Source: an uncultured Lachnospiraceae bacterium (GTDB lineage: Bacteria > Bacillota > Clostridia > Lachnospirales > Lachnospiraceae). Taken from it: a DNA stretch of 64,000 nucleotides. The notes under the pieces are model-generated. The model was given only the letters and a program-made list of their open reading frames with translations, did no database searches and had not been told where the DNA came from. The position numbers and the translations under genes are program-made. How positions within the stretch are numbered: the first letter of the stretch is position 1; the number at the start of each line of letters is the position of its first letter. The stretch covers positions 18,906 through 82,905 of the forward strand of contig CARHSH010000001.1 of the NCBI GenBank assembly GCA_948989975.1. Direction: 5' to 3'. This document shows positions 39,613 to 64,000 of the stretch, in pieces.

Positions 39613-39712
39613 ATAATGTGAGTAAACAAAAACAATATTGTTACTTACTGACACAGTTCCAAATGAAGCGTACGGTCATTGGGGATTGCGTCGTATAGCA
39701 AATCAAAATTAT

Positions 39713-39744: not shown

Positions 39745-39753
39745 AAAAATATT

Positions 39754-40954: not shown

Positions 40955-41047
40955 AATAAATAGGTGACAGAAATCATGTTACTTATTAAAGAGTGGGTTT
41001 TTGAATGGAGCGTACGGCCGGAAAAAAACACTATGAATCAAAATCAT

Positions 41048-41079
41048 GCAGCAAGGAAGCTGCAGTAAATTCAAGGAGG
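41048..41079 (+). promoter_or_regulatory. CsrA-binding leader elements (BS1 hairpin plus BS2/SD) of flagellin 2
   Basis: Identical to the copy 1 leader. Confidence 0.5.
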
Positions 41080-41087
41080 AAAAAATT

Positions 41088-42425: not shown

Positions 42426-42453
42426 TTGACAAATGTCAGCTTTTTATTATAAT
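42426..42453 (+). promoter_or_regulatory. Consensus sigmaA-type promoter (TTGACA-N16-TATAAT) upstream of the maf operon
   Basis: Perfect hexamers, read directly. Confidence 0.45.
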
Positions 42454-42491
42454 ACAAAAAAATATTGCTGGGCAATATGGAGGGGTATAGT

Positions 42492-42833
42492 ATGGAGGAA
42501 TTTTCAAATTTATTGTGGCACAATATTGAAATTGTTCAGTGCATTTGTAATAAAATCGAGAATCAGGAAGCGTACATTGAGGATATTCGGGGATACCTTC
42601 CTTCTCTTAATCAAATGATTACATCAATATTTACAAATATGCAGCAAGGGCAAATTTCTTTGGAATTGAATCAAGGCTTTATTATTCAGGCGCTAAATGA
42701 TATTCTATATGGAATAGAAAATGAAGATTCTGTATTTTTGCTTGATGTATTGCGATATGGGTTATTAGAAATTTATGGATACATAAGTAGTGAACTGCAA
42801 AGTGAGGGCTGTTATGAATCAGTTAATATATAA
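42492..42833 (+). CDS. Hypothetical small protein upstream of and overlapping maf
   Basis: ATG at 42492 after GGAGGGG; 113 aa; no recognisable motif. Confidence 0.35.
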   Translation: MEEFSNLLWHNIEIVQCICNKIENQEAYIEDIRGYLPSLNQMITSIFTNMQQGQISLELNQGFIIQALNDILYGIENEDSVFLLDVLRYGLLEIYGYISSELQSEGCYESVNI

Positions 42834-44712
42834 AAAAAATCTGGAGGCGTTAAATGCGAAATATCCTATATGGGCGGCTCTTATAGACGGGGTAAAACGT
42901 AAAAAACGAAATTTCAATGTTGAAGCAGAGCAGAGTTTCATGGGAGAAACTATTTTGAAAGTAACTCAAGATGGGAAAATGCGTTACTTAAATGGAAAAT
43001 ATGCTCCTTCGGCAGTAGTGGAACGTTGGTTTGAAAAACAGGGAAAAATAGAAGAATACGCGCCAATTGTGATAATAGGCATTTCAAATGGAGAACATAT
43101 ACGACAAATTATAGAACGCTCCCCAAAGACTTCTAATATTTTAATTTATGAGCCATCTTTTGAATTATTCCGCAGGGCGATGCAAGAAGTGGATTTAACA
43201 TTTCTCTTTGAGATGGATATTCCGGTAGGGATTATTGTTGAGGGATTAAATGAAGATGAGTTAGAAGCTTTCCTTTATTTATTTATATCTTATGACAATA
43301 TGGCTTTTCTTCGGTGGTATATTTCAGGGAATTATCAGGAATTATTTCCAAAAGAAGTGGAAGAATTTGTAGGACGTTTAAAGAATCATGTGTCACAAAT
43401 CCATATTGGCTGGAATACAAAATTACGTTATACAAATGTCAGGGCAGTAAATGTATTTGTCAATCTGCCATATTTAGCAGATGGATACAGCATTCGGGAA
43501 TTGTATGGAATGCTTCCGGAAGACGTTCCGGTTATTGTCGTTTCAGCAGGCCCATCTTTAAATAAAAACATTATGGAATTGAAAAAAGCAGTCGGGAAAG
43601 CCTGTATTATTTCAACAGATACTGCGATAAAGCCTCTCTTAAATGCAGGAATCGTGCCGAATTTCTTTATTATTATAGATGGGTTAAAGCCGGAAGTGCT
43701 ATTTCAACATAAGGATATATCTAAAGTTCCTATGGTGACTATGACGGCGGTTTCCACAGAGCCGATGTCATGCCATAAAGGGAAAAAATTCTTTTATGGC
43801 GCGGAGTCTGCATTTGAAGATGAACTTACGGGAGATATAAAGAGGAGCCGTGACGAAGACAGTGACAGAGTGATACCGTTTCTTGTAACTGGCGGTTCTG
43901 TTGCGACTTCGGCATATGCGCTGGGTTTAAATATGGGAGCTAAGACAGTGATATTAGTGGGTCAGGATCTTGCAATGACCGGGAATAAAACGCATGCAGA
44001 CGGTACATTTCAGGCGCAGATGGATCAGATTGACAAAAATAGCGGCGAATACTTTGAAGTGGAAGCTATAGATGGCGGCAAGGTTTTGACGAGACTTGAT
44101 TTTGATATGTACCGTAAATGGTTTGAAGACCATTTTAAGCAGTGGAATCATGTCACAGTCGTAGATGCGACAGAAGGCGGAGCATTAATTCATGGAACGA
44201 AAGTAATGACTTTAAAAAAGGCAGTTCAAAAATATTGTGTGCATGAATTTAATGTAAAGTGGCATACGGATCGCTGCAAAAAATTATTTCAAGATGAACA
44301 GCGGGAAGTTGTGTTGGATTATTTTGCAAATTCCCTAAAAAAATTACAGGAAGTGAAGAAAAAAGCGACAGAAGGGATTCGTTTCTATGAACGTCTGGAG
44401 AAGATGGCGAAAAAAAGCTCGGTATCAGATCAGGAGCTTGGAAAGGCTTTGAAAAAAATCAAGAAATTAAATCATTATATGGAAACTGACTATATGGCGC
44501 GCACTGTTATGGATAGTTTAGATGGTCTAAATTTTACGTTAAGGCCGCTTGCTTATCAATTAAGAGAGGATAAACGGAGCGAGCTTTTAGATGTGGCTAG
44601 TCAGGGAAAAGTGCTACTTTACGGGGTGGCAGTTGCAGTAGATGAAGTATCTGAGATAGCGGAAAAGACGATTGTGCAGTACGCCAATTCCAACAGGACG
44701 AAACGGAAATAA
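42814..44712 (+). CDS. maf: Motility accessory factor Maf (DUF115 / MptE-like), a putative flagellin nonulosonic/heptose glycosyltransferase
   Basis: VIVVSAGPSLNKNI...ISTDTA core typical of DUF115. It lies directly downstream of the flagellins. Confidence 0.6.
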   Translation: MNQLIYKKNLEALNAKYPIWAALIDGVKRKKRNFNVEAEQSFMGETILKVTQDGKMRYLNGKYAPSAVVERWFEKQGKIEEYAPIVIIGISNGEHIRQIIERSPKTSNILIYEPSFELFRRAMQEVDLTFLFEMDIPVGIIVEGLNEDELEAFLYLFISYDNMAFLRWYISGNYQELFPKEVEEFVGRLKNHVSQIHIGWNTKLRYTNVRAVNVFVNLPYLADGYSIRELYGMLPEDVPVIVVSAGPSLNKNIMELKKAVGKACIISTDTAIKPLLNAGIVPNFFIIIDGLKPEVLFQHKDISKVPMVTMTAVSTEPMSCHKGKKFFYGAESAFEDELTGDIKRSRDEDSDRVIPFLVTGGSVATSAYALGLNMGAKTVILVGQDLAMTGNKTHADGTFQAQMDQIDKNSGEYFEVEAIDGGKVLTRLDFDMYRKWFEDHFKQWNHVTVVDATEGGALIHGTKVMTLKKAVQKYCVHEFNVKWHTDRCKKLFQDEQREVVLDYFANSLKKLQEVKKKATEGIRFYERLEKMAKKSSVSDQELGKALKKIKKLNHYMETDYMARTVMDSLDGLNFTLRPLAYQLREDKRSELLDVASQGKVLLYGVAVAVDEVSEIAEKTIVQYANSNRTKRK

Positions 44713-44792
44713 TAGGATCACATGATACAGGGCATTACAAAAAGCAGCGGGCGGCTGAAAATCAAATTTCAGCCGCCCGCGTTATGTATCTT

Positions 44793-45776
44793 TTATTTTA
44801 GGTACTTGAACCAATCTTCCGTGGCATCGACAATGGTATCCGGCGTCCATACAGGAGCTTTCCGCCAATAGTCAATGTTTTCAAGGACTTTGCTAACGCC
44901 ATCTTCAAATGAGATTTTAGGCTCCCATCCCAGAACATCATGAATTTTTGAAGTGTCAGCAAATGTGCAGTCGGGTTCTCCGGGTCTTTTTGGGATATTT
45001 GTGATTTCACCGCCCAATAGTTCACACAGCCTGTTTATAGAGTAGGTTCCTCCGCTTCCAACGTTGAATGTGTCTTGTTTGATATCCGACATAGCGGCTG
45101 TATAAAAAGCGTCGACAATATCTGTTACATATGTAAAGTCCCTTGTTTGAGTTCCATCTCCTACAACGGTAAATGGTTTGTTGGCTAGTTTTTGGGCTAA
45201 AAATACGCCAAATACAGCCCCATAAGTGCCGGAAGTCCTCGATCTTGTGCCATATACGTTGAATAGTCTCAAAGTAATCACAGGAAGACCGTAGACTTGC
45301 CCCCAGTGCAAGATGGTTTCTTCCCCTAATCTTTTTGTAAGGGCATAAGGATACTGTGGCCTGATTTCGGCTGTTTCTCTGGTAGGGTATTGGTCAGGAA
45401 TGCCATAACAGGAAGATGAAGCGGCATAAAGCAGCTTTTTGATATTTGTGTTTTTCGCGCATTCCACTACATTAAACGTTCCTAGGACATTAGAGGAGTA
45501 ATAATCTTGAGGCCTCTGAATAGATGGAACGATGTCGGCTAATGCCGCAAAGTGGAAAATGTAGTCCACATCTTTAAAAATAGGCTGGATTTCCTCCTTA
45601 TTTCGAATGTCCATTTGATAGATGCTGAGATTTTTGTGGCCTTTGAGGTGATCTAGGTTTTCTAATCTTCCAGTGCTTAAATTATCAATTACGCGGACGT
45701 CATGCCCTTCAGATAAAAGCCTATCCACCATATGGGAGCCAATAAATCCGCACCCGCCTGTAACCAGTGACGTCAT
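44793..45776 (-). CDS. NAD-dependent SDR epimerase/dehydratase (nucleotide-sugar)
   Basis: TGGCGFIGSH Rossmann motif, YALTK catalytic dyad, VIDNLSTG. Confidence 0.7.
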   Translation of the reverse strand: MTSLVTGGCGFIGSHMVDRLLSEGHDVRVIDNLSTGRLENLDHLKGHKNLSIYQMDIRNKEEIQPIFKDVDYIFHFAALADIVPSIQRPQDYYSSNVLGTFNVVECAKNTNIKKLLYAASSSCYGIPDQYPTRETAEIRPQYPYALTKRLGEETILHWGQVYGLPVITLRLFNVYGTRSRTSGTYGAVFGVFLAQKLANKPFTVVGDGTQTRDFTYVTDIVDAFYTAAMSDIKQDTFNVGSGGTYSINRLCELLGGEITNIPKRPGEPDCTFADTSKIHDVLGWEPKISFEDGVSKVLENIDYWRKAPVWTPDTIVDATEDWFKYLK

Positions 45777-46336
45777 ATACTGTTTCCTTCCTTTCTTTCT
45801 AATATTTTAATAAAGTCCCTCAAATCTTTCAATGTATAATCGGGAACTACTATTTCTTCTAGGCGCGCAACTCCATAACCGGAATCAAGCAATACCGTTT
45901 TTAAGTTCGCATTTTCGCCAAGCCGTATATCACATGCGCGATCTCCAACTACATAAGAGCCATTCATAGTTATTTGAAAATCTGAACAGGCTTTTTCTAA
46001 CATACCTATAGCGGGTTTGCGGCAATTACAATTAAAGGCATAGCCTTGTATCACGCCTTTTTGATGATGTGGGCAGTAATACACAGCATCAACTCCTGTC
46101 TCTTGTATGAGATATTGATTCATGGAGAGAAGCGTTTCTTCCGTGAAATAACCGCGCGCAATCCCGCTTTGGTTAGAAACGACAATCGCATAGTAACCAT
46201 AAGTATGTATTTTTTCTATACAGCTTTTGGAGTATGGGAAAATTTCCAGCTCATTTGTGGAACGGATATAGCTTTTTTCTTTAGTAAGAACGCCATCTCT
46301 ATCAAGGAAAATAGCGGGTTTTGCTTTCTTTTTCAA
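45773..46336 (-). CDS. gmhB: D-glycero-D-manno-heptose 1,7-bisphosphate phosphatase GmhB (HAD-IIIA)
   Basis: IFLDRDGVL DxDxT motif; 187 aa; overlaps neighbours by 4 nt. Confidence 0.65.
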   Translation of the reverse strand: MKKKAKPAIFLDRDGVLTKEKSYIRSTNELEIFPYSKSCIEKIHTYGYYAIVVSNQSGIARGYFTEETLLSMNQYLIQETGVDAVYYCPHHQKGVIQGYAFNCNCRKPAIGMLEKACSDFQITMNGSYVVGDRACDIRLGENANLKTVLLDSGYGVARLEEIVVPDYTLKDLRDFIKILERKEGNSI

Positions 46337-46914
46337 ATGGATGCCCCTTCACTTTCTAATATCATATCTACTATTTGTTGTAAAATTAAATTATGGGCTG
46401 ATTCCACAATGCCATATTTACTGCAAGGAGTATAGACGTTAATATCGCCTAATTGCCTTGCCTTATTGTCAGGGCTAAAACCTGTAAATGTAATGACTTT
46501 TGCATTTTTTGCTTTGGCTGTTTGAATTGCATTGATAATATTTTGTGAATTGCCTGAACTGCTGATTGCCACGACTAAATCATCTTTTTTTACAAGAAAA
46601 TCCATTGGTTTTGAAAATATATATTCATAACCATAATCGTTGCCAATGCAGGTTGTCAAAGCGTTATCATACAGGTTATATGCGTTCATTTTTCCGTTTT
46701 TCATAAAATCTGCCGCCATATGGCTGGCAATGGCAGCGCTGCCGCCGTTTCCTACGAAAAAGAGATTTGAGCAGAAACGTTTATGTTCAAGAAAAACATC
46801 AAAAAGCATTTGGATGCCTTCTGTGTAGGTTTCGTGGTATGAACCGTCTTTTTTTTGTATTTTCGTTGATTCTAATGTTTGTATAAATGTGTTAATATAA
46901 TTATTTTGCAGCAT
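46333..46914 (-). CDS. gmhA: Sedoheptulose-7-phosphate isomerase GmhA (SIS domain)
   Basis: 193 aa; SIS motif FFVGNGGSAAIASHMAADF. Confidence 0.7.
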   Translation of the reverse strand: MLQNNYINTFIQTLESTKIQKKDGSYHETYTEGIQMLFDVFLEHKRFCSNLFFVGNGGSAAIASHMAADFMKNGKMNAYNLYDNALTTCIGNDYGYEYIFSKPMDFLVKKDDLVVAISSSGNSQNIINAIQTAKAKNAKVITFTGFSPDNKARQLGDINVYTPCSKYGIVESAHNLILQQIVDMILESEGASI

Positions 46915-47523
46915 AATAATCGCTTCTTTCTGATAATTATTTATAATGTATTAGTATATCACAGGAGTATAGCATGTAACAAGAATTTTTTGTAATGATT
47001 CCTGTTATTGATTTCTGTTATAAATAATAGAAATGGTTAGAATGAAATAATTCGTAAATGATTGTATTTAATATGTATAAAGTTAAATTAAGGATAAGCC
47101 GATAAAAAGAATAAGAGTTAAATTGCGTTTTCTATCAGCATGGAAGCTGTATTTTATTCAGGGAGGAAGAAGAAATGACGAAAAGGAAAGACATGCAGCG
47201 AAAAATTGCATGGGGGGGGAAAATCAGAATCTACTAAAAAGTGGAAAAAAATTCAAACTTTATATGGATTATCTCAAGAGACGTTAGGGGCAATTTTTTT
47301 GTTGCCTTTTTTTTGGTGTCTGCCGTTTGATCCGGTTATGGCTTGTAAAGGATATAAGTGTGTTGGGATAAGAATGGATAAGAATTGTTGGAAGGACGCC
47401 TATGTTTGAAACAAAGACAGCATGGGAAACGCAGTGAATATACTACAATTCTTTTTTTGCGTTTTATAACATTTTTTGCAACAGAAGATAATATGCCAAA
47501 ATAGCTGGGAAGAAGGAATTAAA

Positions 47524-49104
47524 ATGAATTTAGAAGCTGAATTTGAACGGTTAAAAACATGTTCCCGTATTTTGATTTGGGGCGGCGGTTATCATACGAA
47601 AGAGGCGCTAAGGTTTTATAAATCTTTTTTTAGGGAACGGGACATACAGATTGTAGATAAGAATAAGGCAGGCCAAAGCATAGAAGGATATAAAATTATT
47701 GCTTCAGATGAAGCAGATTATTCGATTGATTATGTTGTGATTATGTCGTCAATATACCATGATGAAATTGAATATGCTTTGCGGAACAGACATGGTTATC
47801 AAGGGGCAGTGATAGGTTTATATGCGTTTCGGAGAGTTCTTTTAAAACTGGATTCATATGAAGAATGTATTGGGCATATGGAAGATTTTGTGTCTCATAT
47901 GGAACAAGGCATAGCAAGTTATTCTTACGACTATATATTTCAAGAAAACTATAGCGTATATAAAAAAATAAGGCTATATGCGTTTTGGGCGTCTTCTATT
48001 GGTGAATCAGTCCGGTATTTATCGGCATATTATGAAACTGTTTTTAAGGATAAGGCAGAAGATGAATACTGCCTGTTAATTCCCTATATAAAAGGGAATG
48101 ATTTCGCGAATGGGCAATTTATAGAGGTTGTTTCCCGTACAGTTCCTATGGTTACATATTGCAACTGTCATTTTTGGGAGTATGCGGTGAAAAAGTACAG
48201 AGAGCGTTTTGATTTGACGTCTTATAATGAATTTAACGGTATTTTAGTGGATGCATATAATCAATTTGATGAACGGATTATAAACAGGACGTTTTGTGAT
48301 AAAAAGTTTCCTTTGATTGCCTATACGCCGGAAGAACGTAAGATGGCGGAATATAAATTAAGGCAAATGGGCGTTTTTGGAGATTTCGTGTGTATATTTG
48401 CAAGAGATAACCACTATTTGCAGCATCAGTATGGACAGGCTTATGGAATTAATGAAATAAGAAATATGGATATCAATTCTTTTAAATCTGCAGTGGATTA
48501 TTTGGAGGGACAGGGAGTAAAGGCAGTCCGCATGGGAAAAGTTGTCAACGGGCCGGTCAATCTGCCAAACTGCATAGATTATGCGGCGGATTTCCATAGC
48601 GACTTTATGGATTTATATTTATGCGGTAATTGCAAGTTTTATGCAGGGAGTTTGTCTGGGATTGTTGCGCTTGCCCAGCTTCAAAGCGCGCCTGTGGTTT
48701 TGCTCGGGGTGGTTCAGCTGGGGATTCACAATTCAATACCATATAGGAGCAGAGATATTTACGTCCCAAAGAAAATATATGACAAAAATAAGAAACGTTT
48801 TTTAAATTTTACGGAAATATGGGATGCGGAAATGGCCGCTAAGGACAAAATATCAAAATATTATGGGGAACACGGGCTTGAGTTTATAGAGCTTGGCAAA
48901 GAAGAAATAAAAGAAGCGATAGTGGAGATGAACGATAAATTAGATGGAGTGTATCAGGAAGACGAACAGGAAAAAGAACTTCAAAAGAAATATCATTTGC
49001 TGTTGGAAAACTGGATATTAGAGAATGGATACCAGTATTCTTATTTCTTGCATATTGACATAAGCGGCAGTTTTATTAAAAAGAATACATTTATGCTTGC
49101 ATAG
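47524..49104 (+). CDS. Hypothetical glycan-biosynthesis protein (526 aa; possible unusual glycosyltransferase)
   Basis: First gene of a long plus-strand operon. N-terminal ILIWGGGYHTKEAL...IVD Rossmann-like segment. The more likely start is MNLEAEFERL at 47524. Confidence 0.3.
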   Translation: MNLEAEFERLKTCSRILIWGGGYHTKEALRFYKSFFRERDIQIVDKNKAGQSIEGYKIIASDEADYSIDYVVIMSSIYHDEIEYALRNRHGYQGAVIGLYAFRRVLLKLDSYEECIGHMEDFVSHMEQGIASYSYDYIFQENYSVYKKIRLYAFWASSIGESVRYLSAYYETVFKDKAEDEYCLLIPYIKGNDFANGQFIEVVSRTVPMVTYCNCHFWEYAVKKYRERFDLTSYNEFNGILVDAYNQFDERIINRTFCDKKFPLIAYTPEERKMAEYKLRQMGVFGDFVCIFARDNHYLQHQYGQAYGINEIRNMDINSFKSAVDYLEGQGVKAVRMGKVVNGPVNLPNCIDYAADFHSDFMDLYLCGNCKFYAGSLSGIVALAQLQSAPVVLLGVVQLGIHNSIPYRSRDIYVPKKIYDKNKKRFLNFTEIWDAEMAAKDKISKYYGEHGLEFIELGKEEIKEAIVEMNDKLDGVYQEDEQEKELQKKYHLLLENWILENGYQYSYFLHIDISGSFIKKNTFMLA

Positions 49105-49153
49105 CATTCTGGCGGGAACAAAATTTGATGAATAAACAGGGGGAATTTGAATT

Positions 49154-50215
49154 ATGGCAGATAAAATCCGAATGGATTCGCACAAATTAATTTATCATCC
49201 AGAGAGGGTTGCGGCTTGGAAGCGTGGAGAAAATATATATCCGATTGAATTGGAAATAGGATTAACAAACGCCTGTAATCATAGATGCATTTTTTGCGCA
49301 GTGGATTATACAGGTTACAAACCGACAATGCTTGAGGCGGATCTTTTAAAATTAAGGATCAGTGAGTTTGCAGAAAAAGGAGTGAAATCTATTATATATG
49401 CCGGAGAAGGGGAACCGCTTTTAAATAAAGACGCGGCAGATATTATTAATTTCACGAAAAAAAGCGGAATAGATGCGGCGTTATCTACAAATGGAGCATT
49501 GCTTACGCCGGAAGCATCGAGAGACTGTCTGGCTTCTTTGACATGGATTCGTTTTAGTACGGCCGCAATTAGAGAAAAAACGTATGAGAAAATCCATCAA
49601 TGCCGGAAAGGAGAGCTTAAAACTGTTTTAAATAATATTCAGGAAGCAGTCCGGACGAAAAAAGATCAAGGGCTCAAAACGACGATTGGCGCGCAATTAT
49701 TGCTTCTGCCGGATAATAAAGATGAAGTTGTGGAGATGGCGAAGGAAATGAAAAAAATAGGAGTGGATTATTTTACGGTAAAACCATTTTCGCAGCATCC
49801 GTCAAGCGGCAATATCTTGCAAGTGGATTATCAGGAATTACTGGAATTGGAACGGGAATTAGAAGGAATTGGAACGGAAGAATTTAAAATATATTTCCGG
49901 GCGCATTCTATGAAGAAATTGGCATGTGAGCGCGGTTATAAGCAATGTCTGGCGCTGCCATTTATGGTATACATTGATGCGAAGGGGAATTTATGGCCCT
50001 GTATTGTGTTTATGGGGCAGGAACAGTTTAGTTATGGAAATTTATATAATGCATCATTTGAAGAAATATGGGAAGGAGAGCGGAGGAAGAAGCTGATTCA
50101 AGAGTTTTCCCAGATGGATTTAGAGAAAAATTGCAGGGAGTTGTGCAGGCTGGATGAAATGAATAAGTATCTCAATGATTTGAGAAATCCCGGACTTCAT
50201 GTAAATTTTATATAG
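49154..50215 (+). CDS. Radical SAM enzyme with Cys-rich (SPASM/twitch-like) C-terminus, paralogue A
   Basis: CNHRCIFC CX3CX2C motif; C-terminal CLALPFMVYIDAKGNLWPC. Confidence 0.7.
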   Translation: MADKIRMDSHKLIYHPERVAAWKRGENIYPIELEIGLTNACNHRCIFCAVDYTGYKPTMLEADLLKLRISEFAEKGVKSIIYAGEGEPLLNKDAADIINFTKKSGIDAALSTNGALLTPEASRDCLASLTWIRFSTAAIREKTYEKIHQCRKGELKTVLNNIQEAVRTKKDQGLKTTIGAQLLLLPDNKDEVVEMAKEMKKIGVDYFTVKPFSQHPSSGNILQVDYQELLELERELEGIGTEEFKIYFRAHSMKKLACERGYKQCLALPFMVYIDAKGNLWPCIVFMGQEQFSYGNLYNASFEEIWEGERRKKLIQEFSQMDLEKNCRELCRLDEMNKYLNDLRNPGLHVNFI

Positions 50216-50265
50216 TATCCGTTTATTCCAATAGGAGAATAAATTTTAAGAGTTAGGAGAGAACG

Positions 50266-53131: not shown

Positions 53132-53170
53132 ATTTCAGAAATCTGGAAAAATAAGCATGGAGGCTGAAAA

Positions 53171-54700: not shown

Positions 54701-54738
54701 TGATTCTAAAGATATATTTATAAAATGGAGGGTAAGAA

Positions 54739-56379: not shown

Positions 56380-56396
56380 GAAAAGGATTTCCGCCA

Positions 56397-57092
56397 TTAA
56401 ATTGTGACATTAAAGTATTGTTGGGCCTTACAGTATTTTTTCTGCCTGTTTCTGATTAAGACACTGCCGTCAGGGTTACGCAGCACAACGGAATCATCGG
56501 AGACCGGCTGTCCATATACAAACGCATCTACTCCAATGGATACACGGTTTCCGATTGGTTCATTGCCTATAATTTTAGCTCCGGCGGCTAAGTAGAGCCC
56601 TTTTCCGAGTTTTGGGACAGTTTCGCCGACAGGGCTTTCACCGGTATTGATGGTGACATTTTGGCCTATTACAAGAAAATCACTGTAAGCTGCATTGCCA
56701 ATTACGCTTCCTACCGGATGTGTAAGGAAGAATATTTCCGGCAGTTTGCCTTTGTAAGAGATAAAAAAACTATGTAAAGTTTTATTCAAGTAAATTAATT
56801 TGTCACAGACAGATTTGTTTGCGGAAAGCTCCCACAGTGAGTTAGCCCAAAAATATAAAAACTGGGCATACTGGTCAGAATGCAGATGCGAGAAAAATGT
56901 TTCGCCTTGGTTATCTGAATATGCGGAATTTTTAATAAAACGGAAGCAATGCTCTGTCCGTTCTAAGGCGCGTTCAAAAGCGGCGTCAACGTCGCTGCCT
57001 TTTAGAGTATGAGTATTGCGATCCGGAAAAAAAAGCTCTAACTGATGCAGCGTATATGTTTGAAGTTCTTGTTTCGGTAATGATAGGTTCAT
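56397..57092 (-). CDS. Hexapeptide-repeat (LbH) acetyltransferase
   Basis: C-terminal left-handed-helix repeats (GSVIGNAAYSDFLVIGQNVTIN...IGNRVSIGVDAFV). The ATG at 57092 overlaps the upstream stop (ATGA). Confidence 0.55.
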   Translation of the reverse strand: MNLSLPKQELQTYTLHQLELFFPDRNTHTLKGSDVDAAFERALERTEHCFRFIKNSAYSDNQGETFFSHLHSDQYAQFLYFWANSLWELSANKSVCDKLIYLNKTLHSFFISYKGKLPEIFFLTHPVGSVIGNAAYSDFLVIGQNVTINTGESPVGETVPKLGKGLYLAAGAKIIGNEPIGNRVSIGVDAFVYGQPVSDDSVVLRNPDGSVLIRNRQKKYCKAQQYFNVTI

Positions 57093-58061
57093 TTCTTCTT
57101 CCTTTTTTGAATATAAATTGGCTCTAAAATAAAACGTGGGAGAATTGCGTATGGCCATACATGGAACCATATCGTAGGATATTTGTATGTATTTAAAAAT
57201 AATATCCATTTATCGTCCATATCATACTGATTATCCTCTACGCTGTATTTTAGGATAGAATCTTTAATAAATCCTTTCATGTCAGTAAGAAAGATTTTTT
57301 TCATCTGGCTTTTTGGAAAACCGGCTTTTACGGCTGTTTGGAGCAAAAGTCTTTTATATTGCTTTACCCAGACTTCAAATAAATTAAATCCGCCGCTGTT
57401 ATTATTTTTTGCGGCTAAATAGGGGGCTTTTGTCAGGATCATTTTAGTATTTTTGCCTGAGAGAATGTGAAATACGATATGCGCGTGTAGAAAATGGGTT
57501 CCAAAATATTTCTCAGGATGCTTTATTTGTTTAAATTTGCTCATTTTCAGAACGGTTGCAGATATATACGTTACATAAACGCCAATGTAATTCATCAGAA
57601 GGGTTTTATCGTAAGTAATCAGATCGTTTGTTTCCCTAAGTTTTATTCTTGGCGCTTTTCTAATGTCCGGATTGAATGTCTGTGTTGAATATGTAAAAGA
57701 ATTTATATTAATATAGGCTGGTCTTTCTGTTTTTATCAGATATAATATTTTTTTTATCGCTCCGGGCAGCAATATGTCATCGTCCGAGAGAAACTGTATA
57801 TATTCGCCGTTCGCTTTTTGGAAACAGTTAAAAAAATTTTTATCCATACCCAAATTTTTTGAATTACGATAATAACGTATCTTATGTTCTTTGCAATATT
57901 TTTTCATTACTTTTGGGGTCTCGTCTGTGGAAGCGTTATCTGATACAAGGATTTCAACGCCGTCTTCCAACTGCCCTAGCGCGCTTTCTAATGACTGGCA
58001 TAATAAATGACAGCGGTTATAGGTAGGGATAGCGACTGTCAGTATAATTTTTTGTCCCATG
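57089..58061 (-). CDS. GT2-family glycosyltransferase
   Basis: ILTVAIPTYNR...ILVSDNASTD GT-A motifs; start at MGQKI with RBS GAGG. Confidence 0.7.
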
Positions 58062-58064
58062 ATC

Positions 58065-58997
58065 TTACCTCTTTCTTTTGGTTTCATAATACTGGATTGT
58101 TTTTTGGATGCCTTCTTCAAAGGGAATTTCAGGCTTCCAGCCGGTATCTCTTGTAAGAGGTTCAATATTGATACAAGAACTTGGCATTATGCCGGGGGAG
58201 CTGATTTTTCTTTCGGGAGGGGGAGTTTTTTCTCCAATGCCTAAAGGAAGCGATGGGTTTATCATGTCCCGAATAGTTAAGACGTATTCCCGAAGTGTTT
58301 TGTGCGTTCCGCTTCCTATTCCATATGTAATATTATGCCTGCCTTTCTCTCCAATTTTAATAATTGCTTTTGCTACATCTGATACATAGACAAAATCCCA
58401 ATTAGACTGGAGATTGCCATAGACAGGGTATTTGCCATCTAAAAGAGTGGTAATCGTATAAGTCAGGATATTGTCTTCTGTTCTTCCTTCCCCATATGTG
58501 CTTGGAAGAACAGTCCAAATCATATCCTGCCCTAATTGCGCGGCAACGGCTTCTAACAGATAGTGGACGGAAGTTTTTGTGGCTCCATAGATGTCAATGG
58601 GCGTCTGTTTCCTTGAAAAATCAATGACGCATTCATTATAAACATATTCTGCCACTGTGCCTGCGGCCAGAAATAGTTTGCATTTTAAATATTTAGAGAG
58701 ACGTAACATATCCAGAGAAGTTTCGATATTGCTTAATTGCAAAGGAATGTTGTTTTTTTCTTTCCCAGAAACGCCTGCCCAGCCAAGATGATAAAATATA
58801 TCATATGTTTTTCCAGACAGCCTTTGCGCCAGTTCTTTAAATTGATAGCCGGCAGTTATTGTTTTTACGGAAGAATTATGAAATGGCATAGAGGAGGGGG
58901 AGGAGGTCAGGACGGTTACGTTAGCGCCTGATTTTAATAATTCCGCAACAACATATCTGCCGATAAATCCGGTTCCTCCTGTAAGAATGGCTTTCAT
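58065..58997 (-). CDS. NAD(P)-dependent SDR nucleotide-sugar epimerase/reductase
   Basis: TGGTGFIGRYV; YGATK dyad; 310 aa. Confidence 0.65.
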   Translation of the reverse strand: MKAILTGGTGFIGRYVVAELLKSGANVTVLTSSPSSMPFHNSSVKTITAGYQFKELAQRLSGKTYDIFYHLGWAGVSGKEKNNIPLQLSNIETSLDMLRLSKYLKCKLFLAAGTVAEYVYNECVIDFSRKQTPIDIYGATKTSVHYLLEAVAAQLGQDMIWTVLPSTYGEGRTEDNILTYTITTLLDGKYPVYGNLQSNWDFVYVSDVAKAIIKIGEKGRHNITYGIGSGTHKTLREYVLTIRDMINPSLPLGIGEKTPPPERKISSPGIMPSSCINIEPLTRDTGWKPEIPFEEGIQKTIQYYETKRKR

Positions 58998-59007
58998 ATT
59001 CTTCCTC

Positions 59008-60021
59008 CTACTGTTCCATGCGTTTTAGAATGATGTCTGCATAGCTGTCTATATCGTCGGTTGTATTCGCCGACAGGCTTTCGCAATGTCTGCAGATTGG
59101 TATATCGTCTTTCCTCTTTTTTAAGTGGAGTTTTTGGTACTGGCAAAGTTTTTCGCCATTCCAAATATCCGCAATTTTTTCGGTTTTTAAATCGCCTAAA
59201 ATATATTCTGTTTTCCAGTCTACACAGCACAGATGCGCAATGCCGGAATGGTTTATTACCATCGTAGTAAATAAAAATGGGCAGACTTCTTTTGGTTGTA
59301 GCTCCTGGCCGTAAGTGCCTTTATGGGCGTTGTTTATTTTTGCGCCGATATTTGTGTCCTGCCAAAGGGTGGAAGAAATGGTTTCTACAAATATTTCGTC
59401 AGACACTTTTTCAAATGTCTGGTAAAAATTCTGTTTTTCTGTTTCGGTATAACCAATATCGCTGTATTTAATAAAGATTTTACAATTCTGTTTATTTTTA
59501 TAGAAAAACTCGATTTTTTTATAGAAATCCTGAAAGTCCATTTCGTATTGGCATACGTCTTTGTACTGTTGTTCATTAATTCCATTTACTGAAATATTTA
59601 ATATGTCAAGACCTGCCTCAATAAGCTCAAGGCTGAGCGTTTCGTTTAGAAGCGTGCCGTTGGTCGTGATTTCAATACATTCTGCGGCCTCTGCTTTTTT
59701 GGCATAGGCTGCCATTTGGGCAATCTTGGGATTCATCAAGGGCTCTCCGATTTTAAACAGCCTTAATTTTTTGATTTTTTGTCTGCCCCAGCAAGAGACA
59801 ATGTCGTCTATGATTTTTTGGAAAAGTTCCAAAGACATTGCGCCAAATGTTACATTAGATTTTTTTATGGTTTCCATGTCTGAGTGGAAACAAAAATTGC
59901 ATTTTAAATTACAGGCGCTGCATACGTCAATTTGAATTGCAAAGGGCGCGGAAAGCGGCAGAACTTCCTGTAACGGGGTTCTTTCCCTTGCGTAAATTTT
60001 GGCTCTTCTTATTGCGCTCAT
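59008..60021 (-). CDS. Radical SAM / SPASM-domain enzyme
   Basis: CNLKCNFC motif and C-terminal Cys cluster (CPF...HLCCVDW...CRHC). Confidence 0.7.
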   Translation of the reverse strand: MSAIRRAKIYARERTPLQEVLPLSAPFAIQIDVCSACNLKCNFCFHSDMETIKKSNVTFGAMSLELFQKIIDDIVSCWGRQKIKKLRLFKIGEPLMNPKIAQMAAYAKKAEAAECIEITTNGTLLNETLSLELIEAGLDILNISVNGINEQQYKDVCQYEMDFQDFYKKIEFFYKNKQNCKIFIKYSDIGYTETEKQNFYQTFEKVSDEIFVETISSTLWQDTNIGAKINNAHKGTYGQELQPKEVCPFLFTTMVINHSGIAHLCCVDWKTEYILGDLKTEKIADIWNGEKLCQYQKLHLKKRKDDIPICRHCESLSANTTDDIDSYADIILKRMEQ

Positions 60022-60047
60022 CGTTGTACCTCCGTGTGGTCTGCTTT

Positions 60048-61832
60048 TTAAGGCAGCATAAGTTTTTTTATTTCATCTTCTTCTAAGAAAGGATACATAT
60101 CATGTAAAGCGGGAGTTTTCATTTTGCCGTTTTCATCTATGCGTGACATGACTTTTGGAATAACAGGATCGTCAAATGCCTGCAATACTTCCAGTATCAT
60201 ATGCTTTGTTGTCTGCATAAAAGCATGTAAGCAGGAATCCACTTCGCCATTATTATGGCAGCAAAGATATTTAAACCCGAATGTGTCTGCAATTTTTTTA
60301 AAATCAGGGAAACTTACTCCGGTATCCGGCGTACAGCCAATGTATTCTCCTTGAAAGAAGTTTTTTGAAGTCTGCCGGATTGCCCCATAACCTTCATTTG
60401 AAAAGATAACGATTGAAATTGGAAGATCGTACTGGGCAATCGTTTGAAGTTCTTGTAGGTTCATCATTATGCTTCCGTCTCCTGTAATGCAGTATACGCC
60501 GGATTTGGAGGAGATGGCGGCGCCTATGGCCGCGGGAATATCGTATCCCATAGATCCGCAAGTATAATTTGTAAGAATCCGTTGGTTTCTCTTTTGGGTT
60601 CCAATTTGTAATTTTGCAGTATTTGCGCTGTTGTTACCAAGCGCTAAAATGCTGTTATCCGGTTCATGTGAATGGAACTGTTTCCAAAAATAGTAGGAAG
60701 AAACCCTGTCTGACAAATGAACGCCATGCCGGATTGCTTCATATGGAGAAAAGCGTTCTTTTAGGTTTTGGCAGTAGGAAAGCCATTCTTTATGCGGCAT
60801 ACAGGGGATGACGCTCTGTCTGGCAGTTTCAAAAAACTGATTTAGGTCTATATGGAGGCTCTTTTGGATTTTAAGCCCCGGTTTTAGGGCTTCGTTTTTG
60901 TCAGCGTCTATCATATAGATTTTTGCATTTGGGGCGAAGCCGTCTTGGTTAAACCCTGTCTGCCGGAATCCCAAACTATTTCCTAAAGTTAAGATTGCAT
61001 CTGCGTTTTGCAAAATAAAATTTCCGGATCTTGATCCCACATTTCCGGAGGAGCCGAAATAAAGAGGATGCTCCATATAGAGGTTATCGGCTACCCATGC
61101 GCCTCCAATTACAGGGAGCCGCATAGAATCAATAAAACTTAAAAACGCTTCCATACAGTTTCCGCTTCTAATGCCGGAGCCTGCAAGGATGCAAGGGCGT
61201 TTTGCAGACTGGAATTGTTGCAGAACAGATTCTATATCTTCTTTGGGAAGATGAGGGAGGGCGCTTTGATATTCTTCCGGTTCATATAATTCGCTTTCTT
61301 CGATATTTGCGCTCTGGATATCCTGTGGGACGTCTAACCAAACGGGTCCCCGCCTTCCGTCCATAGCGATATGAATTGCTTTAACCAATTCTCTCTTTAC
61401 GGCGTATGGATCAGTCAGCATTGTGGCATATTTAGTCATATTTTGAACAGATGGGATAATTTCAAATTCTTGCAAGCCACGATAACGTAAAGGAAGGCCT
61501 GATTTTGGGACGGAAATTTCATAACGGACTTGTCCAGACAACACAATCATGGGCAGACTGTCCTGCCATGCTCCCATCACGCCTGTTATGGCGTTGGTGG
61601 AACCGGGGCCAGAGGTGACGCAGACCGCCGCCATTTTTCCGCTGTATCTTGCATAGGCTTCTGCCGCCATGGCGCACGCCTGTTCGTGGTGGTTAAAGTA
61701 TTTATTCATTTTCGGACATTTTAGCAAAGCGTTGTCTAAAAACATCGCGCCTCCGCCAACGACAGCAAAACAGTCTATAATTCCGTATTCTGTCAGTGTG
61801 TCCATAATGATGTCAGCCACTCGTTTTAACAT
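60048..61832 (-). CDS. Thiamine-diphosphate enzyme of the acetolactate-synthase large-subunit / YerE-like family
   Basis: 594 aa; TPP-enzyme N-terminal and C-terminal domains (GGGAMFLDNA..., ITGDGSIMMNLQEL). Confidence 0.65.
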   Translation of the reverse strand: MLKRVADIIMDTLTEYGIIDCFAVVGGGAMFLDNALLKCPKMNKYFNHHEQACAMAAEAYARYSGKMAAVCVTSGPGSTNAITGVMGAWQDSLPMIVLSGQVRYEISVPKSGLPLRYRGLQEFEIIPSVQNMTKYATMLTDPYAVKRELVKAIHIAMDGRRGPVWLDVPQDIQSANIEESELYEPEEYQSALPHLPKEDIESVLQQFQSAKRPCILAGSGIRSGNCMEAFLSFIDSMRLPVIGGAWVADNLYMEHPLYFGSSGNVGSRSGNFILQNADAILTLGNSLGFRQTGFNQDGFAPNAKIYMIDADKNEALKPGLKIQKSLHIDLNQFFETARQSVIPCMPHKEWLSYCQNLKERFSPYEAIRHGVHLSDRVSSYYFWKQFHSHEPDNSILALGNNSANTAKLQIGTQKRNQRILTNYTCGSMGYDIPAAIGAAISSKSGVYCITGDGSIMMNLQELQTIAQYDLPISIVIFSNEGYGAIRQTSKNFFQGEYIGCTPDTGVSFPDFKKIADTFGFKYLCCHNNGEVDSCLHAFMQTTKHMILEVLQAFDDPVIPKVMSRIDENGKMKTPALHDMYPFLEEDEIKKLMLP

Positions 61833-61924
61833 CTTAACGCCCCTCCAAATTTAGCTTTCGATAATTCATAACATAATTTTATATTGTTATATGGGAATTG
61901 TAAATATATATTTCTGAAAATTGT

Positions 61925-62812
61925 TTAATAGAGTAACTGGAATAAATCTATTTCATCTTCATGTTCCAAATACCATTGATATAACTGGCGGACGGAATCT
62001 TCTATAGGCGTATATTCAAAACCGGTAAGTTCTTCCATTAAACGGGCGTTTGAAGCGGTATATTCTTTTGCCAGCCCTTCTTTACAAATGTAAATGGGGA
62101 GCTCTTTTCCGCTGATTTTTAGGACAAGGCGGCAGAGCTTTTCTAAACTGATTTTCTTTCCCGAGACGGCGTTATAGGTATGGCGGGTTGGGGCGTGATG
62201 CAAAAAATATTCTATGATCCGGCAAAAGTCTTCTACCCAGATGTAATCGAAATACACATTCTGCCGTATAGATAACGGCAGGTTTTTTATCGCTTTACAG
62301 CAGATATTTGAAATGAACTTCACGGGATAATATTCATATTTCCCGAATATTCCGAAAAGCCGGAAGTTATAAACATTGTCTGATTTTTCAATTAATTCCC
62401 CTATTGTATATTTCATCAAACCGTATTGGTCAGTCGGAAGGCTTTTGCCTAAATCTGTTTCCGCTACATTGGCAATGTCGAACCGTTTGTCATATTCTGC
62501 GCCTGAGCCAGAATAATACATCCTGCTAAAGAGATGGGAATTTTTATAGAAATTTAAAAAGATCCGCATATTATATTCAAATATTTTCGAACCGTCTTTC
62601 GATTTGTCTATGCTGTCGCCATATGAGGCAAAATGGAGGATGTAATCAAATCTGTGGGCTTTTAAATATTGTAATGTTTCCGTTTCTTCTATGCAGTTTA
62701 GCTCTTTGCTTGACGGAGTGTATATATCATAATTACGGTCGTTTTTCTGGAGATATTCTTTTACGTTTCTGCCAACAAAACCGCTGGCTCCGGTAATTAA
62801 TATTTTTGGCAT
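61925..62812 (-). CDS. SDR-family nucleotide-sugar 4-reductase/epimerase
   Basis: ITGASGFVGRNV; YGLMK dyad; 295 aa. Confidence 0.6.
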   Translation of the reverse strand: MPKILITGASGFVGRNVKEYLQKNDRNYDIYTPSSKELNCIEETETLQYLKAHRFDYILHFASYGDSIDKSKDGSKIFEYNMRIFLNFYKNSHLFSRMYYSGSGAEYDKRFDIANVAETDLGKSLPTDQYGLMKYTIGELIEKSDNVYNFRLFGIFGKYEYYPVKFISNICCKAIKNLPLSIRQNVYFDYIWVEDFCRIIEYFLHHAPTRHTYNAVSGKKISLEKLCRLVLKISGKELPIYICKEGLAKEYTASNARLMEELTGFEYTPIEDSVRQLYQWYLEHEDEIDLFQLLY

Positions 62813-62972
62813 AATGTCCTCTTTTCCGAATATACAATTTTAGTTACATTTAGGGGGATGCAGCAATTAAAAAACCCTAATACTATATCGGCAATTTTTG
62901 GGGAAACATGAGAAGCGGTTGTTACGGAAAAGTTATATTTGTCCGATATAAAAATAAAGTATGGGAAAGGAT

Positions 62973-64000
62973 GAGGGGGAAAATGAGAGAAGATGAGCTT
63001 TTAGAATATGGAATACAGCAGTTTGAGAAAGAAATATACGAGGAAGCTTTAGAAGCGTTCGTTTTATTACATATGAGAGGATATAACCAAGAGGAAATCT
63101 TAAAGAATATCTATTCGTGTTATATGGAAGGGAATGAGGGGCAGTTTCGGGAGACATATGGACGTTGTAGTATTTTTAAGGAGATTCCCTATGAAGAATG
63201 TTTGCTCGATTTTGTTCCATATAAAGAAGGGGAATATTTTATTTATGATAAATTAAAAAGGGGGTTTTTGGGAACTTTTTCTTTGCCTGAAATTGAGCGT
63301 GAAAAAGAGCTGAATAGAGAATTTGATGATATTGCGGTAGAACTTGACTGGGACTGGCGGTTGTTTAAGCCTGCTTTGAAGTGGACGGGCAAACATAAAC
63401 TATACGCCATATGCCATGACAAACGGCGCTCGGTTTCATTCTGTAAGATCCCTGAAATGGAAAAATATTTTCAGAAGGTGTTTGCGTTTGGGGATCGAGA
63501 AGAATACCGGCAATATTTCCATACAAATACCAGCGTATTTTTGCCACGTTTTTTTTGGGGGAATCAGGATGACAAACTTGCTTTGGCGCATATATGGGAG
63601 GAGGAGCACGCTTACCGTCTTACGCCTCAGGGAAGGAATACAGAGAATGTTGTGTTGTCAATCGGGATACCGACGCATGACCGTGGGAATTTAGCTTTGG
63701 AAAAAGTGGTAAATTTGCTGACGATGTGTTATGACGCAGAAATAGAAATACTGGTTTCTAAAAATGGTATGGCGTTATATCAAGAGGAATATCGTAAAAT
63801 TGCCGCAATTTCTGATGCGAGGCTTCGTTATGTGGATCATAATAAGGAACTGACGGCGGATATTTCATGGATAAAAACGGTTGAGCTGTCGAAAGGACGG
63901 TTTACGTTGCTGGTCAGTGATGAGGATAGTGTGATTATTGAAGCGCTTGATCACTATCTTTCAATGCTTTTGGAAAATCCGGAATTGATTTTTGTAAGGG
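62973..64000 (+). CDS. Multidomain protein with a GT2 glycosyltransferase domain, truncated at the right window edge
   Basis: ATG at 62973 (MRGKMREDELLEYG...). A GT2 N-terminal motif VLSIGIPTHDRGNLALEKVVNLL lies near 63650. The frame is open to the window end. The track omits it because it is edge-truncated. Confidence 0.5.

Follow-up and report, generated by a model that had tools for sequence, protein, structure and literature searches.

A probable flagellin glycosylation island with a heptose-type, radical SAM-rich pathway in an uncultured Lachnospiraceae bacterium

Introduction

Which sugar is made by the genes that lie beside the flagellins of a gut Lachnospiraceae bacterium, and does that sugar end up on the flagellin? 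The question is raised by a stretch of 64,000 nucleotides (nt) from an uncultured member of this family (assembly GCA_948989975.1, contig CARHSH010000001.1, positions 18,906 to 82,905 of the forward strand; hereafter, the window), in which two flagellin genes and a gene for a motility-associated factor (Maf) glycosyltransferase are followed by a long block of sugar biosynthesis genes. A sequence-only reading had predicted that this block yields a branched and/or C-methylated deoxy-heptose, built by a nucleotide-heptose pathway, a dedicated transketolase and radical S-adenosylmethionine (SAM) enzymes, and placed on flagellin by Maf. Every gene class listed in that reading was located, at the family level, by open reading frame (ORF) listing and profile searches.

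On balance, we consider it probable that the region is a flagellin glycosylation island with a heptose-type, radical SAM-rich pathway. The heptose origin of the sugar is moderately likely, and its detailed chemistry is speculative. Flagellin glycosylation islands and the nucleoside diphosphate (NDP)-heptose pathway are each already known, whereas the core enzymology and the phase-variable control outlined below are undescribed.

Results

A sugar cassette conserved beside flagellin and Maf genes

The core of the block is a cassette encoding a GmhA-like isomerase, a fusion of a nucleotidyltransferase and a kinase in reversed domain order, a GmhB-like phosphatase, an extended short-chain dehydrogenase/reductase (SDR1), two radical SAM enzymes of the SPASM type (rSAM1 and rSAM2) and a split transketolase. 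We compared it with 20 loci from GTDB species genomes that contain a relative of the fusion, and with five more (L106 to L110) reached through rSAM2 homologues. Among these, L106 belongs to the isolate Butyrivibrio sp. NC2002 (GCA_000702265.1), L107 to Omnitrophica, L021 to Elusimicrobia and L023 to SAR11; the flanks covered in L107 to L110 extend over 10 kb. The cassette adjoins flagellin and Maf genes in L006, L007, L008, L009, L015, L016 and Butyrivibrio sp. NC2002. At least seven other species have this gene order next to flagellin and Maf, which can hardly be attributed to chance, and the flagellin-linked sugar island of the sequence-only reading is borne out by synteny kept across the Lachnospiraceae.

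The genome-collection scan contained no relative of the fusion above 80% identity, and in the Lachnospiraceae loci identity to the window proteins is 65–80% for the fusion, 76–85% for SDR1, 52–64% for the GmhA-like protein, 34–57% for the GmhB-like protein where present, 47–80% for rSAM1 and 40–64% for the split transketolase. The second SPASM enzyme in these loci is either rSAM2, at 64–83%, or a divergent substitute. SDR1 and rSAM2 are the most conserved core enzymes.

On the flagellar side, a late flagellar operon (FlgN, two FlgK, FlgL, FliW, FlaG, FliD and FliS by profile search) lies upstream of the block and is followed by these genes:

37940..39469, minus strand: Glyco_trans_1_2-domain glycosyltransferase of 509 aa (PF13524, 56.8 bits), upstream of the flagellins
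39679..40866, plus strand: flagellin A (Flagellin_N and Flagellin_C), a presumed glycosylation target
41046..42200, plus strand: flagellin B (Flagellin_N and Flagellin_C), a presumed glycosylation target
42790..44712, plus strand: Maf glycosyltransferase (MptE-like/DUF115); the called form has 632 aa and starts at 42814

Flagellins A and B are arranged in tandem and share 97% identity. The Maf gene starts 590 nt 3' of flagellin B, a layout with equivalents in relatives. Its product passes the MptE-like/DUF115 catalytic-domain model PF01973 (119.8 bits, cut-off 34.6), narrowly misses the N-terminal domain model PF20157 (21.1 bits, cut-off 23.5) and matches the full-length PseD-type model NF050051 only in part (107.6 bits, cut-off 670); the NCBI annotation of the protein is motility-associated factor glycosyltransferase. 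The two FlgK-like hook-associated protein genes of the late operon are themselves in tandem (581 and 617 aa, window 28159–31782).

Core enzymes of the cassette

The core genes are divided between a short minus-strand group and a plus-strand operon, the order of which is TIGR04372 transferase, rSAM1, split transketolase, rSAM2, fusion and a B12-dependent radical SAM enzyme that is listed with the accessory genes below:

44793..45776, minus strand: SDR1, extended SDR (GalE/UXS/4,6-dehydratase-like; profile search)
45773..46336, minus strand: GmhB-like HAD-IIIA phosphatase (NF006506)
46333..46914, minus strand: GmhA-like SIS isomerase of a divergent subfamily (TIGR00441)
47524..49104, plus strand: TIGR04372-family glycosyltransferase, first gene of the plus-strand operon (174 bits, cut-off 45)
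49154..50215, plus strand: rSAM1, radical SAM/SPASM, core (profile search)
50266..51111, plus strand: split transketolase, N half (Pfam domains)
51093..52016, plus strand: split transketolase, C half (Pfam domains)
52013..53131, plus strand: rSAM2, radical SAM/SPASM, core (profile search)
53171..54700, plus strand: fusion of a nucleotidyltransferase (residues 14–155) and a PfkB heptose-kinase-like domain (residues 186–490)

The identities given here have a common limit: the matches to GmhA, HldE, GmhB, transketolase and acetolactate synthase are in each case the best and highly significant, and lie below the curated equivalog cut-offs of NCBIfam. The GmhA-like protein scores 90.8 bits on TIGR00441 (sedoheptulose-7-phosphate isomerase; cut-off 209.45), and the best 13 of its 15 PDB matches are GmhA. 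The GmhB-like protein reaches 149.5 of the 178 bits set for NF006506 and 127.1 of the 149.6 set for TIGR00213, and it passes the HAD-IIIA and histidinol-phosphatase domain models. In the fusion, the domain order is the reverse of that in Escherichia coli HldE, where the kinase precedes the transferase, and the match to the HldE model NF008454 (150.5 bits) falls short of the cut-off of 521; the separate domains are matched by rfaE_dom_I (expectation value, E, 1.3e-34) and rfaE_dom_II (E 4.9e-26). The best PDB match of the kinase domain is the Burkholderia heptose-7-phosphate kinase HldA (4e84). The nearest match of the transferase domain is 5x9q, which was deposited as a putative cytidylyltransferase and which we take to be Burkholderia HldC, followed by TagD-type cytidylyltransferases. 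The catalytic motifs HxGH (here HPGH) and GAGD are intact, as read in the translation. The GmhA/GmhB/HldE-like pathway proposed earlier is upheld in that its four enzyme families occur as a set and are the best matches in profile searches; the same searches leave all of them under the curated cut-offs.

The transketolase has its N, pyrimidine and C domains (Pfam) spread over two polypeptides. The best PDB match of the C half is a characterised enzyme, the Carboxydothermus split transketolase (6yaj, E 2e-66), and the two halves score 265 and 200 bits on NF004559, a model of the fused enzyme with a cut-off of 488. The split transketolase is confirmed, and the supply of sedoheptulose-7-phosphate, the role first assigned to it, is not the sole reading of its presence.

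Over their full length, the two core SPASM enzymes, rSAM1 and rSAM2, share 27% identity. The AlphaFold model of rSAM2 (pLDDT 83.8) has its best fold matches in DesII and BlsE, and next in SPASM peptide maturases, anSME and viperin. Homologues of rSAM2 form 4650 clusters at E ≤ 1e-40; the best 120 are all at least 65% identical, and one of these comes from Omnitrophica.

Candidate transferases and the nonulosonic acid genes

In at least 12 loci, the cassette comes with a protein of about 700 aa whose C-terminal domain is Glyco_trans_1_2; its gene usually heads the operon, and in Butyrivibrio it sits after that of the GmhA-like protein. In the window, the Glyco_trans_1_2 gene is on the other side of the flagellins, and the operon-head position is held, as in L014 and L017, by a TIGR04372 transferase, homologues of which are also found in the Elusimicrobia and SAR11 cassette loci. 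Because these transferases co-vary with the cassette, which also occurs without Maf, they are most likely better candidates than Maf for the transfer of the cassette sugar, and the role of Maf as transferase of a heptose-derived sugar is weakened. In L012, a protein of 823 aa with a TagF-like CDP-glycerol glycerophosphotransferase domain (L012:6491-8959) occupies the transferase position, a hint at a CDP-linked activated sugar or at transfer in the form of a sugar phosphate.

The absence of pseudaminic and neuraminic acid (Pse/Neu) enzymes holds inside the window, where SDR1 scores only 43 bits on the PseB model, and fails beyond it: a genuine PseB is encoded 3.6 kb past the window end (L003:4210-5211, minus strand, window-equivalent 67602–68603; 507.5 bits on TIGR03589, above the cut-off of 407.75). 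This PseB is the only Pse/Leg/Neu enzyme found in the whole island, which contains no aminotransferase, NeuB/PseI-type synthase or cytidine monophosphate (CMP)-synthetase. In four relatives (L009, L015, L016 and L106), Leg/Neu genes sit a few genes downstream of Maf. L009 has NeuC (373 bits, cut-off 236) and L015 a gene 65% identical to it; L016 has LegC (451 bits, cut-off 420) together with LegB-like and PtmE-like genes; and in Butyrivibrio three Maf paralogues lie immediately upstream of the cassette and a NeuB-family gene after it. The cassette appears normally to coexist with a nonulosonate pathway, and the species of the window appears unusual in having an island without one. Given the PseB past the window and the NeuC, LegC and NeuB genes near Maf in relatives, Maf may still transfer a nonulosonic acid.

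The gene content also bears on a different account, in which the organism has no nonulosonic acid pathway and its single Maf was recruited to put the heptose-derived, branched or methylated sugar on flagellin. PseC, PseH, PseG, PseI, PseF, NeuB and CMP-synthetase are indeed missing from the window and from about 11 kb beyond it, a PseB without an aminotransferase is unable to make pseudaminic acid, relatives retain nonulosonate genes downstream of Maf, and the three Maf paralogues of Butyrivibrio directly adjoin the cassette. However, PseB is encoded in the island, the cassette occurs without Maf in L107 to L110 and without a Maf match in L021 and L023, and it always has a Glyco_trans_1_2 or TIGR04372 transferase of its own; to our knowledge, moreover, all characterised Mafs use CMP-nonulosonic acids. 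We regard such recruitment as a possibility, clearly less probable than transfer by the dedicated enzymes.

The cassette in other phyla

Outside the Lachnospiraceae, the cassette is found in reduced forms. Omnitrophica L107 has a bare six-gene version that consists of SDR1, the fusion, rSAM1, the two transketolase halves and rSAM2; SAR11 L023 has SDR1, the fusion, transketolase, rSAM2 and TIGR04372 transferases; and Elusimicrobia L021 has the fusion, rSAM2, TIGR04372 transferases and a thiamine diphosphate (ThDP)-dependent carboligase, with no match to SDR1 or transketolase. Across phyla, identity to the window proteins is 54–84% for SDR1 (54–59% in SAR11 and Omnitrophica), 53–72% for rSAM2 and 46–61% for rSAM1. 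GmhA and GmhB, both part of the Lachnospiraceae cassette, were not seen in the flanks examined in SAR11 and Omnitrophica; housekeeping copies of both are usual in diderms.

The split transketolase is present in 14 of the 20 genome loci, including that of SAR11, and in all five rSAM2-derived loci. In Omnitrophica and SAR11 its second subunit is reduced to the pyrimidine domain, and L007 and L021 have no transketolase but another ThDP carboligase. Because the enzyme is kept in the streamlined SAR11 and Omnitrophica cassettes, the supply of sedoheptulose-7-phosphate is not the only role that it may have. The transketolase and an aldehyde- or keto-forming SPASM enzyme might alter the carbon skeleton, so that the product is not a heptose: a two-carbon extension of NDP-heptose would give a nine-carbon sugar, or an octulose phosphate would be formed and then activated by the GmhA-, HldE- and GmhB-like enzymes, in the manner of the lincosamide octose pathway. 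The retention of a transketolase with a pyrimidine-only second subunit in these minimal cassettes speaks for such a route, as a redundant sedoheptulose-7-phosphate supplier would be unexpected in a streamlined genome. So do the exchange of transketolase for another ThDP carboligase in L007 and L021, the conserved alteration of the GmhA-like active site, and the presence of anSME among the fold neighbours of rSAM2; SPASM enzymes of the anSME type oxidise alcohols to aldehydes. The window transketolase halves, however, look like an ordinary split enzyme, given their match to 6yaj and a summed NF004559 score near the cut-off, the alternation of transketolase and carboligase is based on two loci, and no tested sequence feature distinguishes sugar-phosphate from NDP-sugar acceptors. 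We consider an altered skeleton improbable, and we attach little likelihood to its wider form, in which the cassette is an undescribed cross-phylum nucleotide-sugar pathway where radical SAM oxidation and a two-carbon transfer of the transketolase type would turn NDP-heptose into a higher-carbon (for example nine-carbon) or rearranged sugar. If this were true, such a sugar would replace or join the nonulosonic acids on Lachnospiraceae flagellin and would be varied by slipped-strand switching.

Accessory enzymes

The heptose-type core is followed by genes that are mostly peculiar to the species of the window. The minus-strand operon among them runs in the order SDR3, ThDP enzyme, rSAM3, SDR2, family 2 glycosyltransferase (GT2) and acetyltransferase:

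54739..56379, plus strand: B12-binding radical SAM enzyme of a probable methyltransferase class (PF02310 and PF04055)
56397..57209, minus strand: CysE/EpsC-like (left-handed beta-helix, LbH) acetyltransferase (weak NCBIfam CysE/EpsC matches, E about 1e-11)
57089..58060, minus strand: GT2 glycosyltransferase of 323 aa (profile search)
58065..58997, minus strand: SDR2, epimerase/dehydratase family (profile search)
59008..60021, minus strand: rSAM3, radical SAM/SPASM (profile search)
60048..61832, minus strand: YerE-like ThDP carboligase (best PDB match JanthE)
61925..62812, minus strand: SDR3, RmlD/heptose-epimerase-like (profile search)

The ThDP enzyme aligns over its full length with JanthE (8rph), a YerE-like aldehyde-ketone carboligase (PMC12188165). 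JanthE is its closest solved relative (E 2.6e-100); the best acetolactate synthase match is at 2e-72, and no acetolactate synthase equivalog cut-off is reached; the YerE-like assignment is hence sustained. The B12 enzyme has an N-terminal B12-binding domain and a radical SAM domain, as do the methyltransferases of the GenK, Fom3 and PhpK class, and reaches no equivalog cut-off, and the acetyltransferase has no Pfam match. The YerE-like enzyme, rSAM3, SDR2, SDR3 and GT2 are nearly confined to the species of the window (among the related genome loci, rSAM3 has a 69% identical homologue in L017 only), whereas the B12 enzyme and the acetyltransferase recur sporadically, the latter at 48–55% identity in L017, L108 and L109.

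These distributions modify several of the initial claims. The four radical SAM enzymes are all there, rSAM1 to rSAM3 being SPASM enzymes, with the B12 enzyme and rSAM3 as variable additions. The LbH acetyltransferase and the glycosyltransferases are likewise present, the acetyltransferase as an accessory whose LbH call depends on matches of E about 1e-11. The enzymes from which a branched or C-methylated deoxy-heptose had been predicted, YerE-like and B12-dependent, were found, and both are variable additions and not part of the core.

Homopolymer tracts and phase variation

In the 64 kb of the window there are only two G/C runs of at least seven bases, G8 at 47212–47219 and G9 at 55026–55034, and both are in the island. 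The window differs from two contigs 99.98% identical to it by insertions and deletions solely at these two runs and at a T8 run (57748–57755). In one of these contigs (L002), G8 instead of G9 at 55026–55034 splits the B12 enzyme into pieces of 114 and 413 aa, and T7 instead of T8 cuts GT2 to 107 aa. For the B12 enzyme, about 105 contigs have the 413-aa form and about 300 the 546-aa form, counted over 15 listed members of a cluster of 45; for GT2 (15 listed of 30), the 107-aa form occurs in 191 contigs and the 323-aa form in about 248. Both shortened forms are found on many long contigs. On/off control by tract length is predicted for the B12 enzyme and GT2, and is probable for two transferase operons as well, upstream of which the following tracts lie:

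47212..47219, plus strand: poly-G tract in a leader ORF; G8 here, G10 and G11 in 99.98%-identical strains
L003:8039-8052, window-equivalent about 64761–64774: G14/G10 tract upstream of a 571-aa transferase gene

The leader ORF (47176–47238) has a good ribosome-binding site and encodes 20 aa with G8 and 78 aa with G10; a terminator-like hairpin follows at 47286–47309, and the TIGR04372 operon begins about 300 nt downstream of the tract. The ORF and the hairpin may form a leader or attenuator. Rfam gave no RNA family in the window at the gathering score, hence no riboswitch or leader was found. A coding frameshift of the TIGR04372 gene by this tract is ruled out, as the tract length leaves that ORF unchanged; the tract falls in the small ORF ahead of the gene or in its promoter region.

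Of the 16 related Lachnospiraceae genome loci, 8 have G/C runs of at least eight bases, as does L109; composition would lead one to expect about 0.1 per locus:

Recurring G runs of 8–14 bases: L006:18039, L009:6972, L011:4709, L013:14165, L014:12265, L015:8953, L016:10684, L017:9038, L109:3717, L109:10569

By position, the run in L014 falls in the B12 radical SAM gene, those in L016 and at L109:3717 in the fusion gene, and that at L109:10569 in rSAM2. Because such runs are far commoner than composition predicts, they suggest that islands of this kind are phase-variable in general. In L109 too (12883–14801), the B12 radical SAM enzyme is broken in two: a B12-binding part of 114 aa and another part of 525 aa.

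Extent of the island, its host and its surroundings

The island spans about 37 kb: it begins at 37.9 kb in the window and reaches about 74.8 kb (window-equivalent). Its first two-thirds fall within the window, and about 11 kb more lie past the window end; that part was read from contigs carrying the window's own proteins (L001 and L003) and from a short metagenome contig of 3 kb from the same organism (L046). The last gene of the window opens the distal portion:

62983..64000, plus strand: 5' part of a GT2-like gene (561 aa complete in L001 and L003; weak WcaA/GT2 matches, E 4e-5)

It is followed by the G14 tract, a 571-aa GT2-like protein, a 293-aa SDR, PseB, three paralogous proteins, a fifth radical SAM/SPASM enzyme and a methyltransferase that ends in a ROK-kinase tail. 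The paralogues (485, 476 and 409 aa; L003:2742-4199, minus strand, L003:1319-2749, minus strand, and L046:299-1528, plus strand; window-equivalent 68.6–73.8 kb) have no family match in Pfam or NCBIfam. They share an N-terminal, Rossmann-like '...GFIDKRAxEI' segment, which is also N-terminal in the TIGR04372 transferase, and a 'GYFNLxxGxHR' motif. The class I methyltransferase (L046:1494-2510) is in frame with the last ~80 residues of a ROK-family kinase, which looks like a scar of island insertion or a chimeric assembly, and the island boundary was placed at this gene because of that C-terminus.

None of the island proteins, all of which are predicted to be soluble, has more than one membrane-like segment, and none has a profile match to polyprenyl-phosphate or lipid-carrier transferase, flippase, polymerase or ABC exporter families, which favours cytoplasmic protein glycosylation over polysaccharide synthesis.

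The window proteins are identical to NCBI entries MCI9426216-236 from a metagenome-assembled genome named "Eubacterium sp.", in which their annotations are merely generic. The host organism is common, as 762 blocks of the assembly collection have an index entry for the fusion protein. The window also matches contigs obtained from other samples at 99.98% identity.

Several features lie upstream of the island. Window 19394–27127 encodes a surface protein of 2577 aa that combines a GH95 fucosidase catalytic domain with F5/8 type C, Big_2, FIVAR, Listeria-Bacteroides repeat and BspA-type leucine-rich repeat domains, which fits a gut lifestyle. A Ter-type stress-response cluster (window 5757–15634) comprises PRTase_2/TRSP, StiP/PELOTA_1, a C-C bond lyase, TelA, two TerD and two YceG_bac proteins, one of them with a trypsin-like domain. 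A QueT transporter (window 2038–2535) and a pair of MBOAT and AlgX-like SGNH proteins (3194–5751) complete this side; the pair looks like one for polysaccharide O-acylation.

Discussion

Taken together, the results translate into a tentative model in which nucleotide sugars would be made in the cytoplasm and attached directly to the two flagellins before export. The first steps of the model follow from enzyme family. The GmhA-like isomerase would convert a ketose phosphate, most likely sedoheptulose-7-phosphate, to an aldose; the PfkB domain of the fusion would phosphorylate C1; the GmhB-like phosphatase would strip the distal phosphate; and the N-terminal nucleotidyltransferase would form an NDP-beta-heptose. 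SDR1 and the two DesII/BlsE-like SPASM enzymes might then oxidise, dehydrate or deoxygenate the NDP-heptose, and the split transketolase would either supply sedoheptulose-7-phosphate or carry out a ThDP-dependent two-carbon transfer in the pathway itself. The TIGR04372 and/or Glyco_trans_1_2 transferases most likely move the product to flagellin. Six transferases (Maf, TIGR04372, Glyco_trans_1_2, GT2 and two GT2-like) suggest an oligosaccharide or several glycans. Among the accessory enzymes, C-methylation of the sugar would fall to the B12 radical SAM enzyme and its acetylation to the acetyltransferase. The YerE-like enzyme would put a two-carbon branch on a keto sugar, and its acceptor could be a 4-keto sugar formed by PseB or by one of the SDRs. 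These enzymes, as well as the extra SDRs and radical SAM enzymes and the PseB and reductase outside the window, would add decoration or a second sugar, and homopolymer switching would yield phase-variable flagellar glycoforms.

Several observations weigh against this model. Every heptose-pathway match is under the curated equivalog cut-off. Of the GmhA residues that we take to be catalytic or zinc-binding (H61, E65, Q172 and H180 in E. coli numbering), the GmhA-like protein keeps H61 and has E65 replaced by D, Q172 by E and H180 by Q. Because of these replacements, its substrate may differ from sedoheptulose-7-phosphate. The resulting H/D/E/Q pattern is constant in all aligned Lachnospiraceae homologues and the phosphate loop SSSGNS is intact; the protein represents a distinct subfamily, for which sedoheptulose-7-phosphate may or may not be the substrate. 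In the fusion, the STTR5 motif (F/L)xxGRSTT, which marks promiscuous heptose nucleotidyltransferases (PMC11573728), is absent as such, the sequence there being ...GGQVFSSTK...; promiscuity for CTP and UTP is therefore not backed by this motif. The fold neighbours of rSAM2, the sole basis of the proposed radical SAM chemistry, are only 14–16% identical to it. The tract length differences come from metagenome assemblies and could be partly assembly artefacts. In the accessible literature, which includes few subscription journals, we found no glycan or flagellin mass data for the organism or its relatives. Finally, no flagellin gene was found within the 10-kb flanks of L107 to L110, and L021 and L023 have no flagellin match; because it occurs in these loci without flagellin, the cassette is not intrinsically flagellar.

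That last observation, together with the TagF-like protein in the transferase position of L012, is what can be said for the view that the block makes a glycan of the capsule, S-layer or wall, has nothing to do with flagellin and is only a neighbour of the flagellar genes. We consider this explanation very unlikely given the lack of any island protein with more than one membrane-like segment or with a match to an initiating transferase, flippase, polymerase or ABC exporter, the flagellin/Maf synteny kept in at least seven species, and the flagellar genes that flank the island on one side.

A flagellin glycosylation island is thus the reading that we retain, and it resembles several known systems in part. 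As in the flagellin loci of Campylobacter jejuni and Helicobacter pylori, with their maf and pse/ptm genes and poly-G contingency tracts, a sugar island with a Maf-family transferase lies beside the flagellins, glycosylation is predicted from the genes to be cytoplasmic and to proceed without a lipid carrier, and genes are switched by G tracts. Unlike in those loci, the island contains a nucleotide-heptose-type cassette with radical SAM, B12 and ThDP enzymes in place of the Pse/Leg pathway, PseB stands alone and outside the window, and the host is a Gram-positive gut commensal. The lincosamide octose pathway, which begins with the transaldolase LmbR, continues through LmbN, LmbP, LmbK and LmbO, and employs a GHMP kinase and a GDP transferase, is similar in that a C-C-bond enzyme of the pentose phosphate type feeds GmhA-, kinase-, phosphatase- and nucleotidyltransferase-like enzymes; here, by contrast, these are a transketolase, a PfkB kinase and a cytidylyltransferase-fold domain. 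With the ADP-L-glycero-beta-D-manno-heptose pathway of the lipopolysaccharide core (for NDP-heptose enzymes, see PMC11573728), the cassette has in common the full set of four enzyme families, and its top matches among families and PDB entries are GmhA, HldA, HldC and GmhB. It differs in its sub-equivalog scores, the nucleotidyltransferase-first fusion, the replaced catalytic and zinc residues of the GmhA-like protein, a monoderm host without lipopolysaccharide, and the coupling to radical SAM enzymes and a transketolase.

For individual enzymes, the parallels are similarly partial. DesII, a TDP-sugar radical SAM lyase/dehydrogenase, and BlsE, of blasticidin S biosynthesis, are the best neighbours of the rSAM2 model and act on nucleotide- or nucleoside-linked sugars, whereas rSAM2, at the low identity given above, has a C-terminal Cys pattern of its own. 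The YerE/YerF system of yersiniose A and JanthE are comparable to the ThDP enzyme in its full-length alignment and in the SDR gene on either side of its neighbourhood (compare YerF). In contrast, JanthE has a CDG motif where the window enzyme has the usual GDG ThDP motif, and the window enzyme is an accessory found in few relatives.

In the accessible literature, we found no description of the cassette or of Lachnospiraceae flagellin glycans, nor any account of flagellin glycosylation that involves heptose, radical SAM enzymes or a transketolase, and a survey of Roseburia and Eubacterium motility genes (Neville 2013) does not mention glycosylation. Conserved, widespread and uncharacterised, the cassette would represent new enzymology, centred on an NDP-heptose and bringing together a transketolase and a pair of SPASM radical SAM enzymes. 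Because the cassette is also present in cultured organisms (Butyrivibrio sp. NC2002 and Lachnospiraceae bacterium XBB1006), the prediction is directly testable.

Lachnospiraceae flagellins are dominant commensal antigens and ligands of TLR5. They are also targeted by serum immunoglobulin G in Crohn's disease (for example PMC10441350). The on/off tracts of the island suggest that this gut commensal may vary its flagellar surface as Campylobacter does.

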